Positions 61,938 to 64,000 of a DNA stretch of 64,000 bases are shown here, in pieces. The position numbers and the translations under genes are program-made. Position 1 is the stretch's first letter, and every line of letters begins with the position of its first letter. Under the pieces are notes generated by a model that made no database searches, had not been told where the DNA came from, and saw only the letters and a list, made by a program, of their open reading frames with translations. Source of the DNA: a phage; the sequence record PX969468.1. One strand, written 5' to 3'.

Positions 61938-62357
61938 ATGAACATTAAATCTAATAATCCGGCATATAGCTTTGATAACGCTTTTTGTCACGGTCCGGCG
62001 GCGAAAGGATTCGAAATCGATGGTAAACTAATTATTGTCAATGTTGACGGGGAAGAGGTTGCAGTATATCCGGTGGCAGACGTAAAAAGCCGTTTACAAT
62101 GCCGCATTGATGTTACCGCCTATCAGCTTGATCCGGTCCGCATAGTTGCCCTGGTCCTGGAAGAAGAAATTAAAGCCATGCACCATAGCAACAGATTTAT
62201 TGGTGACGCGCAGGATAATATGAAAGTATGCCGCCATAAAGTTAATGAAGTGCTTAAAGAGTACGGCTATAAAGATCTTATGATCAAACGTGAGGAAAAA
62301 TTCCGCTACCGTAACGACCTGGCAAATCGAATCTATGAAATATACGAATCATTATAA
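61938..62357 (+). CDS. Early-region protein (139 aa)
   Basis: promoter TTGACA-N17-TATATT at 61861-61889, RBS AGAGG. Confidence 0.55.
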   Translation: MNIKSNNPAYSFDNAFCHGPAAKGFEIDGKLIIVNVDGEEVAVYPVADVKSRLQCRIDVTAYQLDPVRIVALVLEEEIKAMHHSNRFIGDAQDNMKVCRHKVNEVLKEYGYKDLMIKREEKFRYRNDLANRIYEIYESL

Positions 62358-62376
62358 TTTCTTAACTAAACTATCA

Positions 62377-62403
62377 GGGGCTTTAAAAGGCCCCTTTCTT
62401 TTT
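62377..62403 (+). terminator. Intrinsic terminator closing the small-gene block
   Basis: GGGGCT-TTAAAA-GGCCCC followed by TTTCTTTTTG. Confidence 0.7.
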
Positions 62404-63020
62404 GTCTGTATTTCTCCTACCACAAACGGCCCAGCCTGGCAAGTGGAATAATTGACTAGCCATCAATCCCACACACTGTACAAATATACATGGAAAATAA
62501 CTATTGCATAATCTTTCATTGTGTGGTAGCAGGGACATTTTTACCCGTTTTCTCTCCCAAAAGTGCACGTAATGCCGCTATTGCACAAATTTTAACCTGA
62601 TGCACATCTCCAATATCTTGTCAACAACTAAAAATCTTTATAAGTCATACACTTACACAACATCGAAAGCGTGTCCTACGCGAAAAATCGAGTATAACTA
62701 TAGCCGCCAAATCTCAGAATTCACGTACGCACGCCATTCTATAGCCTGCAAAGTATTTATTCCAACCACAGAATAACGGAATAGTCAATACCTGCATAAA
62801 ATAATTATTCGTGTAAACTGCATAACATAAATCCGCTCAGGTGTCAACATTTTTCGTAAACAGTCCGAAATTATCACGATGAGTTATCATAAACAAAGAA
62901 ATCTTTAGTCGTCTAATGTTTACTGTACATTACTATACTGACTGGAATCATTAGATGACTAAGAGAAAGATAAGGAATAATTAACAATGTAAGTATTTTA
63001 CCTGCAACAATAAGGCAACT

Positions 63021-63040
63021 ATGCAAACGAATGGCATGGC
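63021..63040. repeat. 20-bp direct repeat, copy 1
   Basis: ATGCAAACGAATGGCATGGC; second copy at 63325-63344 with one mismatch. Confidence 0.7.
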
Positions 63041-63053
63041 GCGACGGAGTCGC

Positions 63054-63205
63054 GACATAATATAAAAGCAGTAACAATCACCCCCGTGATAGTTTTTCTG
63101 CAATCTATTATTCAGATCATAGTTGCCTTGTATCCAGTTAATCATGACATAATAAGCAAGGCAACTATAGATCTGATAATAGTTGCCCTGCTTTTATATT
63201 ATGTC
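63054..63205. repeat. Perfect 18-bp inverted repeat pair enclosing AAGGCAACTAT sites
   Basis: GACATAATATAAAAGCAG (63054-63071) and CTGCTTTTATATTATGTC (63188-63205); four AAGGCAACTAT-like copies between 63011 and 63190 in both orientations. Confidence 0.75.
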
Positions 63206-63256
63206 ATAGAAACGCCCGAAGGGGTGACCTAGTCACCTGGCATAGCCAGCGAAAGA

Positions 63257-63320
63257 TTATTAACTTGTTAATCGTCAGCTTGTTGGCTGTTAGCTTGTCA
63301 ATTGTTAACTTGTTAATTGT
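63257..63320. repeat. Iteron array 1 (4 x about 15 bp, TTAACTTGTTAAT-like)
   Basis: TTAACTTGTTAATCG, TCAGCTTGTTGGCTG, TTAGCTTGTCAATTG, TTAACTTGTTAATTG in tandem. Confidence 0.7.
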
Positions 63321-63324
63321 TTTC

Positions 63325-63344
63325 ATGCAAACGAATGTCATGGC
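63325..63344. repeat. 20-bp direct repeat, copy 2
   Basis: ATGCAAACGAATGTCATGGC. Confidence 0.7.
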
Positions 63345-63356
63345 TTATCATATCTG

Positions 63357-63432
63357 TGTAAACTGTCAAGGTGTAAACTATCCAGGCGTAAACAGTCTAT
63401 GCGGGAACAATCTATACGTGAACAGTGAAACA
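63357..63432. repeat. Iteron array 2 (5 x about 15 bp, GTAAAC-N3-TC-like)
   Basis: GTGTAAACTGTCAAG, GTGTAAACTATCCAG, GCGTAAACAGTCTAT, GGGAACAATCTATAC, GTGAACAGTGAAACA. Confidence 0.7.
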
Positions 63433-63453
63433 TGAAATAATAACAGTCGTTAT

Positions 63454-63545
63454 TGTGTCGAAAGTGTATAAAGTGTCAGATTATGGCATATTGTGTGACA
63501 TTGTGTCAAAGGTAAAAGTGTCAAAAGTGGCAAAAGTGTCAGACA
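63454..63545. repeat. Iteron array 3 (about 8 x 10 bp, AAGTGTCA-like)
   Basis: TTGTGTCGAA, AAGTGTATAA, AAGTGTCAGA, TTGTGTGACA, TTGTGTCAAA, AAGTGTCAAA, AAGTGGCAAA, AAGTGTCAGA at about 10-bp period. Confidence 0.7.
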
Positions 63546-64000
63546 AGTTTTTCTCCTCTTTGTCAAGTGCTGCATGAAAAATTTACAAACTGGTATGGTA
63601 GCATTTTTGCGGCCCTGTTTACATTCAGGAGTGTATGTATAACCCTTGTTGTGTGGGCGTTTAGACGTCTGGACGGTCAGAAGTCCGCAGGTTAATATCT
63701 AATCTATTGGTCGCTAACTATATCCCCCACAAATAATAAGAAATGCAATTGTTATGTGCGTAAACAGTGACTCATGTTATCAATCCCTGTATGTATCGCC
63801 AGTGGTGCGCATAATGGGTATTATGTTAAATTGCCCGTAATGATAACTATTCTCACAATGATAGGTATTCTCATTCAACCCCGCAAAACAGGTTGCAAAT
63901 GTTGTGCCACTGTGTGAACGGCCTCACCTATTAATCTGCCTCACTGCCCCGATATTTGAGAATTGTTATAAGAATGAGAAGTATTCCCATTTCGTCCGCC

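Follow-up and report, generated by a model that had tools for sequence, protein, structure and literature searches.

Why would a large phage keep gene-free DNA in which three arrays of short repeats follow one upon another? The question is raised by positions 63021-63545 of a 64,000-nucleotide stretch of phage DNA (sequence record PX969468.1; the whole stretch is called the window below), where a 20-bp direct repeat, a cluster of inverted repeats and three tandem arrays are packed together. A first-pass annotation, made from the letters of the window, read the differing periods of the arrays as binding sites for different proteins, of the sort present in iteron-type replication origins or centromere-like partition sites. 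Our comparison with related genomes leads to another part of phage biology. The arrays abut, from the inside, a segment that we identify as one copy of the direct terminal repeat (DTR), which means a physical genome end and a concatemer junction, and they are therefore most naturally seen as part of genome-end biology. We propose, tentatively, that they are signals for packaging or for the processing of concatemers.

By its sequence, the source of the window is an rV5-like coliphage of the genus Vequintavirus: 120 phage records match the region at 87-97% identity, and the annotated ones that we fetched are all classed as Vequintavirus. Positions 63542-64000 can be assigned with high confidence, from the end repeats of these relatives, to the 459-bp DTR of the genus. 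In ECP2309, positions 1-459 are identical to 136405-136863 and both copies map to 63542-64000 of the window, and ECP2303 is the same genome with one DTR copy. The segment stands at positions 1-458/459 in seven records from different submissions (ECP2309, EdH4, HdK5, YN3, Gotham, Pr121LW and EcoIv14a_Aya), five of which contain it twice; the Gotham record annotates 1-459 as repeat_region. Terminal redundancies of 458 bp have also been reported by Korf et al. (2019) for EdH4 and HdK5, whose ends were set where the sequences stopped abruptly (PMC6563267). The window itself stops exactly at the outer DTR boundary (...CGTCCGCC|TGGCAGC, the bar marking the boundary), so that the source record probably opened at the physical end of the genome. 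By homology to the records of its relatives, the phage would thus have a linear genome with exact, fixed-end direct terminal repeats.

A cross-genus check is provided by the Klebsiella phage KPP-1 (Mydovirus), whose 514-bp DTR was determined from sequencing coverage and with PhageTerm (PMC9862379). Both of its DTR boundaries align with both boundaries in the window: ...TTCTCTCTCCTTGTCAAG in KPP-1 faces ...TTTTTCTCCTCTTTGTCAAG in the window, and GTCCGTC|TAGCA faces GTCCGCC|TGGCA. The KPP-1 boundary, mapped independently, falls within ~1 nt of the position homologous to 63541|63542.

It is at this inner boundary that the arrays end. The last unit of array 3 closes at 63541 and the DTR begins at 63542, and the last four nucleotides that the first-pass annotation had given to array 3 (63542-63545) belong to the DTR. 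Together, the three arrays occupy the DNA 1-290 bp from the inner DTR boundary, that is, ~460-750 bp from the physical genome end. For comparative anatomy, we set the window beside 14 Vequintavirus relatives, which gives 15 genomes. The TGTCA with which array 3 closes, 5 nt before the boundary, shows no variation among the 15, and neither does the longer TGTCA|GACAAG; every one of them reads (G/A)TGTCA|GACAAGTTTTTC. A second TGTCA, 19 nt inside the DTR, is likewise invariant in the 15 genomes. Judging by these alignments, TGTCA|GACA at 63541|63542 is presumed to be the end-generating cut position, and the arrays are found where pac and cos sites are expected, at the position of end-generating cleavage.

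The arrays themselves are well defined. In array 1, the core A[GA]CTTGT starts at 63262, 63277, 63292 and 63307, and in array 2, G[TG][AG]AAC starts at 63358, 63373, 63388, 63403 and 63418; the spacing is exactly 15 bp in both, and a repeat finder together with these motif positions bears out the four and five units that the first-pass annotation had counted. The eight units of array 3 start at 63453, 63462, 63471, 63491, 63501, 63516, 63525 and 63534. Here the earlier estimate of about eight units stands, but not the 10-bp spacing of one helical turn: the usual period is 9 bp and the series is irregular (9, 9, 20, 10, 15, 9, 9). When 64-nt segments over the whole window were scored for self-match at a lag of 15, array 2 (0.76) and array 1 (0.71) took the top two places (mean 0.27, s.d. 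0.07). In dinucleotide-preserving shuffles of 62400-64000, 0 of 1000 reached the observed lag-15 value and 0 of 1000 reached 0.71 at any lag from 7 to 24. Shuffling, which had been named beforehand as the control that could reduce the repeats to base composition, thus left the periodicity of arrays 1 and 2 unmatched. The 9-bp block of array 3 is weaker, being reached by 3 of 1000 shuffles, and is not unique in the window; its motif is nonetheless concentrated, with 8 TGTCA on the + strand per 300 bp at array 3 versus a maximum of 3 in any other 300-bp stretch of the window. GTRAACWRTC occurs six times in the 64 kb, four of these in the array region and all on the + strand. The units of all three arrays share one orientation, and a motif scan of the window, after the scan of the full genome suggested by the first-pass annotation, finds the motifs confined to the array region and not scattered through the other 62 kb. 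Its remark that the arrays are not CRISPR also stands, since units of 9-15 bp run head to tail without spacers, as opposed to repeats of 23-50 bp with unique spacers.

Two lone array-2 units were seen outside the array, CGTAAACAGTC 500 bp upstream (62856-62865) and CGTAAACAGTG inside the DTR (63759-63769). Array 3 also contains phased A-runs (AAAAGTGTCAAAAGTGGCAAAAGTGTCA) and, on the - strand at 63509-63480, a sigma-70-like promoter directed away from the DTR (TTGACA, 18-nt spacer, TG-CATAAT; 11/12 matches); the block with this promoter-like site is absent in isim, AlexBoehm and A6-1. A coding reading of the arrays, suggested by periods of 15 and 9, both multiples of 3, and by short open reading frames that span the arrays, was considered and rejected, because a contiguous core followed by a variable linker is not codon-like and because the 16-bp spacing in rV5-type and Gotham-type arrays breaks the frame.

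Among the relatives, the three arrays behave differently. Array 2 (GTRAACWRT) is present in all 14, with 3-8 units at a spacing of 15-16 bp or multiples of it, and comes in three diverged versions (window-like, Gotham-like and rV5-like). Across the 34 distinct units of the 15 genomes, core positions that the search pattern had left free are conserved as well, with A/T at +6, A/G at +7 and T at +8 in 33 of 34, while the linkers of 3-4 nt vary. This conserved core with variable linkers, kept in a 15-16 bp register through three diverged types, supports the earlier suggestion that the units are short directional non-coding motifs resembling protein-binding sites. Array 3 has 2-8 units in all 14 relatives. 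Array 1 numbers 0-3 units; Gotham, EdH4, HdK5, Alma and FV3 lack it altogether. Conservation in related genomes, the absence of which was to count against the arrays, holds for arrays 2 and 3 and is incomplete for array 1. As regards conservation of the kind expected of pac or cos sites, arrays 2 and 3 are found in 14/14 Vequintavirus relatives and are absent as arrays in KPP-1, which has homologous DTR boundaries. An exact-pattern scan of IMG/VR for further relatives matched one contig.

The ground on which the arrays stand is less stable than the DTR. Only 24 of the 120 relatives align over >=80% of 63000-63560, compared with 118 of 120 for the adjacent DTR, and the distance from the terminator at the left edge of the gene-free region to the DTR ranges from 814 to 1168 bp among the 14 relatives; length variation is thus concentrated in the repeat zone, beside a well-conserved DTR. 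From the palindrome to the second copy of the 20-bp repeat, the sequence is a mosaic of small optional modules, including a 48-nt module of three hairpins and array 1. The first-pass annotation had located the 20-bp repeat correctly (19/20 identity between the copies), and a 13-mer within it, ATGCAAACGAATG, is found in the 64-kb window at the two copies only. What the repeat encloses, however, is the inverted-repeat cluster together with array 1, and not array 2 or array 3, so that the body of that annotation was right on this point and its title, with all three arrays flanked, was wrong. Thirteen of the 14 relatives have both copies of the repeat, 213-339 bp apart. In the remaining one, FV3, a single copy joins the left flank of copy 1 to the right flank of copy 2, and exactly the bracketed palindrome, hairpin module and array 1 are missing. 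By its sequence, this state fits either a repeat-mediated deletion or an empty insertion site. Since FV3 exists without the bracketed cassette, the cassette can be dispensed with, provided that the FV3 record is not an artefact of assembly.

Within this cassette, the palindrome is the steady part. The 152-bp element has perfect 18-nt outer arms and is nearly invariant in 13 of 14 relatives, FV3 being the one that has none. As single-stranded DNA, 63005-63255 folds with -57.5 kcal/mol (z = -10.5), and 0 of 200 shuffles fold as well; the sequences of the relatives are too alike to show any covariation in the palindrome. It lies 336-487 bp (~340-490 bp) from the inner DTR boundary and has a counterpart at the same relative position in KPP-1, where perfect 21-nt inverted arms (2839-3044 of L019) lie 309-514 bp from the DTR boundary and are unrelated in sequence to the palindrome of the window. 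A palindromic motif, ATGATAA-N4-TTATCAT, also occurs in KPP-1, in four to five copies.

In T7-type packaging, concatemers hold one terminal repeat per junction, the terminase recognizes signals at the junction and the repeat is duplicated (PMC9860248; PMC10438801). We propose that the arrays of the window are packaging or concatemer-processing signals on this pattern, genus-specific protein-binding repeats at the concatemer junction, and we give this proposal slightly less than an even chance. The arrays, adjoining one DTR copy from the inside, would form one flank of the genome junction in replicating concatemers. Proteins of the phage, perhaps joined by host proteins, would bind arrays 2 and 3 as directional sites and act on the genome end. 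The likeliest partner would be the terminase complex or else accessory factors by which the junction is marked. This partner would place the cut at TGTCA|GACA during packaging of the T7 type, in which the single DTR of each junction must be duplicated. Array 1 and the cassette bracketed by the 20-bp repeat would be accessory. A narrower version is conceivable, though we doubt it: in a large myovirus with DTR packaging, arrays 2 and 3 would form the site at which the DNA is recognized for packaging. A multimeric small terminase or a new accessory protein would load on the TGTCA run and on the 15-bp-spaced GTRAACWRT units, the final TGTCA would fix the cut, and the palindrome would furnish the hairpin intermediate for DTR duplication. 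Such intermediates have been proposed for the processing of junctions in T7.

Several observations weigh against our proposal. The copy number of array 2 (3-8 units) and array 3 (2-8 units) is very tolerant and would also fit weak or no selection on number. The arrays are restricted to the genus: in KPP-1 the boundary positions are the same, but the arrays are absent and a single GTGTAAACTGTCAAG unit lies ~180 bp from the boundary, so that the core determinants of cutting or recognition may lie in the conserved DTR ends instead. Beyond the window, the other flank of the DTR (read in relatives, at 1860-2860 of L010 and in eight others) is a further gene-free ~950 bp with a different, dispersed motif, CTYTTCAGR, in 3-5 copies of the same orientation at conserved positions (~+70, +150, +186 and +600 from the DTR end); TGTCA occurs there only 1-3 times in 1 kb. 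In this respect the phage departs from T7, in which one motif serves both flanks, and the function of T7's own arrays is itself unsettled. The terminus assigned to this phage derives from the records of its relatives rather than from its own reads, and PhageTerm has called other Vequintavirus isolates 'circularly permuted' or headful (PMC8407724; PMC13211470). Finally, the binding of protein to the arrays, and packaging or end processing as the process that they serve, are what we infer from position and conservation.

The instability of the segment raises the alternative that the arrays are largely neutral products of slippage and recombination, short repeats that expand, contract and shuffle beside a recombinogenic genome end and have no sequence-specific function. 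Copy number indeed varies among genomes otherwise 93-97% identical (0-3 units for array 1, 2-8 for array 3), the segment is a mosaic of modules that are present or absent, FV3 has lost what the 20-bp repeats enclose, a loss that repeat-mediated deletion would be expected to produce, far fewer relatives align here than over the DTR, and such stretches of rV5 have been termed 'wastelands' (PMC8785237). Neutral turnover would nevertheless have had to spare array 2 in every relative, with its conserved core of 9-12 nt, its variable linkers and its fixed 15-16 bp register in three diverged versions; it would have had to leave all units in the same orientation, the boundary TGTCA without variation and ~2.5 kb of gene-free DNA in place across the genus. 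We therefore regard it as rather unlikely. A function at the genome end other than packaging is also conceivable: a host or virion protein on end-proximal sites might pause or anchor the entering DNA, block nucleases or regulate early transcription, loosely as in the injection-stop region of phage T5. The distance of the arrays from the physical end (460-750 bp) and the repeat- and palindrome-rich, untranslated character of the DNA answer to the same general description as the T5 region (10.1101/866236), and a strong sigma-70-like promoter lies on the - strand inside array 3. The T5 region is, however, defined by eight DnaA boxes (10.1101/866236), of which no consensus copy is found here; the window has no Chi sites, and the promoter-bearing block is missing in three relatives (isim, AlexBoehm and A6-1). 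Control of entry, end protection or early transcription is accordingly quite improbable in our estimate.

The two models put forward by the first-pass annotation fared less well than its description of the repeats. In an iteron-type replication origin, a phage initiator would bind the units and open DNA nearby, as at lambda ori and plasmid origins. Direct repeats with conserved cores in a gene-free region, a long adjacent palindrome and a moderately AT-rich stretch close by (GC 0.27 at 62901-63000, compared with 0.44 for the window) are what such an origin might look like, and the secondary origins of T7 lie close to its ends. In rV5, moreover, GC/AT skew changes at 104425-105475 (PMC3606486), where the DTR maps to 104973-105431; the authors of that study, however, link all skew changes to switches in the direction of transcription, and a bidirectional origin would be expected at a divergent point, whereas this site is convergent and also a physical end. 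Consensus DnaA boxes (TTWTNCACA) and the IHF consensus are absent from 62400-64000, the GC minimum (0.27) lies ~350 bp from the arrays, and the units of 15 bp and, irregularly, 9 bp do not match the ~17-22 bp in helical phase of iterons. No initiator gene is adjacent (none of the five nearest genes, to which the search for an initiator was confined, gave a Pfam match), and array 1 and the palindrome are missing in FV3. Replication by a family A polymerase with a gp4-type primase-helicase is not known to use iteron-binding initiators. The replication genes of rV5 are of precisely this T7-like kind (PMC3606486). Taken together, an origin is improbable, if somewhat less so than a site for entry control. 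A centromere-like partition site (of the parS, parC or sopC type), at which a ParB-like or ParR-like protein would bind and so segregate a plasmid form of the genome, is close to refuted. The general look of tandem short repeats is all that speaks for it. A search of plasmids gave one mis-filed Vequintavirus genome and, in phage-like elements, the 48-nt hairpin module; in 5,426 complete E. coli genomes there was no match, the five adjacent genes contain no ParA, ParB or ParR domain, the relatives were isolated as lytic coliphages, and the arrays sit at the end of a linear genome.

The features of the region are collected in Table 1. In the orientation of the window, they follow one another as terminator, ~650 bp of further sequence, 20-bp repeat, 152-bp palindrome, optional hairpin module, array 1, 20-bp repeat, array 2, array 3 and DTR.

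Table 1. Positions of the repeats, hairpins and boundaries in the gene-free end of the window
Feature	Position	Strand	Basis and remarks
Intrinsic terminator	62376-62395	+	8-bp stem, 5 GC pairs, T-run; closes gene 61938-62357; left edge of the gene-free region
Direct repeat, copy 1 (ATGCAAACGAATGGCATGGC)	63021-63040	+	19/20 identical to copy 2
Small GC hairpin, CGCGAC-GGA-GTCGCG	63040-63054		Fold; at the foot of the large palindrome
152-bp palindromic element (inverted-repeat cluster)	63054-63205		Perfect 18-nt outer arms GACATAATATAAAAGCAG / CTGCTTTTATATTATGTC; inner arms ATAGTTGCCTTG / CAAGGCAACTAT
Optional ~48-nt module of three mini-hairpins (CCCgaaGGG, GGTGACctaGTCACC, CTGGCataGCCAG)	63208-63256		Present in 7/14 and absent in 7/14 relatives; sequence AGAAACGCCCGAAGGGGTGACCtaGTCACCTGGCATAGCCAGCGAAAG
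Array 1, four 15-bp units (TTAACTTGTTAAT-like)	63256-63321	+	Tandem Repeats Finder: period 15, 4.4 copies
Direct repeat, copy 2 (ATGCAAACGAATGTCATGGC)	63325-63344	+	19/20 identical to copy 1
Array 2, five 15-bp units, core YGTRAACWRTC	63356-63432	+	Repeat finder, motif scan and relatives
Array 3, eight (A/T)(A/T)GTGTCA-like units (WWGTGTCA)	63453-63541	+	Last unit ends exactly on the DTR boundary
TGTCA|GACA palindrome (4+1+4), TGTCAGACA	63537-63545		Central A (63541) is the last base before the unique/DTR boundary 63541|63542
Direct terminal repeat of Vequintavirus, 459 bp	63542-64000		Assigned from relatives' end repeats; outer boundary ...CGTCCGCC| at the window end

The last + strand gene of the window (61938-62357, 139 aa) ends at 62357, and from there to 64000 we find no credible gene. 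The terminator that closes this gene is annotated at the same site in EdH4, HdK5, Gotham and Alma. In the relatives, the gene-free stretch measures ~2.5 kb, lies between two converging gene blocks and is retained across the genus. The five genes nearest the arrays have no Pfam domain and belong to PHROG families that are all of unknown function, and the presence or absence of the 139-aa gene does not follow array type among the relatives. An Rfam scan of 62000-64000 (E up to 1) returned four weak matches (E 0.087-0.17), far under the gathering scores, and thus no known RNA family. Two further imperfect hairpins, at 62905-62962 and 62469-62526, lie between the terminator and the first 20-bp copy; their 22-nt arms (82% and 73% complementary) enclose 14-nt loops, and the one at 62905-62962 is found in FV3 too.

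Inside the DTR, a 17-nt motif, AATGA(T/G)A(A/G)(C/G)TATTC(T/C)CA, occurs in three copies (63839-63873 and 63973-63989), two of them in tandem at 18-bp spacing, and one arm of it also pairs as a 13-nt inverted repeat with 63957-63969. From its sequence and placement, this motif is a possible recognition element within the repeat. The optional hairpin module has a distribution of its own: it recurs at 84-86% identity in the unrelated phage-like E. coli 'plasmids' p3RM10740, in three places and beside a tape-measure gene, and pE275a_13, near a capsid gene. Its third mini-hairpin shows a compensatory change from CTGGC..GCCAG to CTGCC..GGCAG. On these sequence grounds, the module may be a small mobile structured element.

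Some of the records that match the region bear unexpected names. Eighteen of the 120 are named 'Campylobacter phage' (e.g. MG065644 and MG065672) and are 89-95% identical across the region to Vequintavirus genomes of E. coli, which suggests mislabelling or contamination. An E. coli 'plasmid', CP057073.1, matches the region at 95.8% and, with 137,565 bp, has the size of a Vequintavirus genome.

Both the Vequintavirus DTR and the gene-free region are already in the literature. The region is the 'non-coding' box of the rV5 paper (PMC3606486), where the repeats are not described, and it is presumably also meant by the rV5 'wastelands with no apparent genes' of the Phage Annotation Guide (PMC8785237), which does not describe the repeats either. 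None of the literature that we consulted describes the arrays, the way in which they adjoin the DTR, or the invariant motif at its boundary.

The rV5-like phages rank with the coliphages that are isolated most frequently, and they are under study as agents of biocontrol and therapy. Read as the concatemer junction, their gene-free ~2.5 kb would gain a testable purpose, comprising the DTR, flanking cis-elements, the invariant TGTCA|GACA and the conserved 15-bp array. Should arrays 2 and 3 prove to be a packaging-recognition site, these phages would offer a genetically tractable model for the making of fixed-end terminal repeats outside the T7 group, and the 'wasteland' of rV5-like therapeutic phages would acquire a function. 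The location of the DTR shows annotators where Vequintavirus genomes should start; most of the listed records opened elsewhere. The region also supplies defined sequences for packaging-signal engineering, for example for transducing particles or for biocontained phages as built for T7 (PMC9860248). It may further help with an old question, the role of short repeat arrays beside terminal repeats. We consider this reinterpretation of the rV5 'wasteland' useful and testable, yet it will be no surprise to a specialist in phage packaging.

How, then, does the locus compare with known systems? With the iteron origins of lambda (ori), P1 (oriR), pSC101 and R6K, it shares tandem direct repeats with a conserved core in non-coding DNA. 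It differs from them in unit length (15 and 9 bp, not ~19-22 bp in phase), in the lack of DnaA and IHF sites and of an adjacent initiator gene, and in its place at a convergent point and physical end. The injection-stop (iss) region of T5 is likewise a large untranslated region near an end, dense in direct and inverted repeats and palindromes (10.1101/866236). That region, however, lies within the left terminal repeat of ~10-11 kb, at the 7.9% point of the genome, and is defined by 8 DnaA boxes (10.1101/866236), whereas the repeats of the window lie outside a 459-bp DTR and no consensus DnaA boxes accompany them. Also comparable are the sites used by terminases, such as the R-sites of lambda cosB, pacL and pacR of SPP1 and PacB and PacC of T7, which, like the arrays of the window by their sequence, are short repeated elements beside the end-generating cut; a point of difference is that the neighbouring genus does not have the arrays, although its boundary sequences are shared. 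The phased A-runs of array 3 recall the bent DNA at SPP1 pac.

A further case, though a weaker one, comes from a related family. In the phi92-like phage BME3 (PP239276.1), CAACAAATAG is repeated four times, starting at the boundary of its 342-bp DTR. In that record, 204-788 is duplicated at 146372-146956, and the annotated 'DTR-L' (146957-147298) is off the true 342-bp end repeat at 147030-147371, which looks like an error of assembly or annotation. Because the record is internally inconsistent and its DTR annotation misplaced, we take BME3 as weak evidence only.

The nearest likeness is to T7. The terminal repeat of T7 measures 160 bp, and the arrays that flank it were named SRL and SRR in the classic T7 sequence papers. 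Reading the T7 ends directly, we find CCTAAAG repeats at ~13-bp spacing at 175-341, with the motif also inside the terminal repeat (16-24 and 59-67) and before the right-hand copy. Both phages have a linear genome with an exact, short direct terminal repeat, and in both a non-coding array of uniform orientation comes to or within 15 bp of the inner boundary (from 175 in T7; array 3 up to 63541 in the window). In both, copies of the motif occur inside the terminal repeat (in the window, the TGTCA 19 nt inside), the spacing is out of helical phase, and a minor host-type promoter lies in the array (A0 at 224 in T7; the promoter-like site at 63509-63480, - strand, in the window). The packaging of T7 uses the PacB and PacC signals at its concatemer junction (PMC9860248). 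The likeness is architectural only: CCTAAAG has no sequence similarity to GTRAAC or TGTCA, and a myovirus of 137 kb is unrelated to a podovirus of 40 kb. T7 has one motif, the same on both flanks; here there are three motifs and periods together with a palindromic cassette bracketed by a 20-bp repeat, and the other DTR flank has a different, dispersed motif. The feature is thus of a known kind, short arrays flanking the terminal repeats of fixed-end phages, from which it is set apart by its three motifs and periods and by its repeat-bracketed palindromic cassette.

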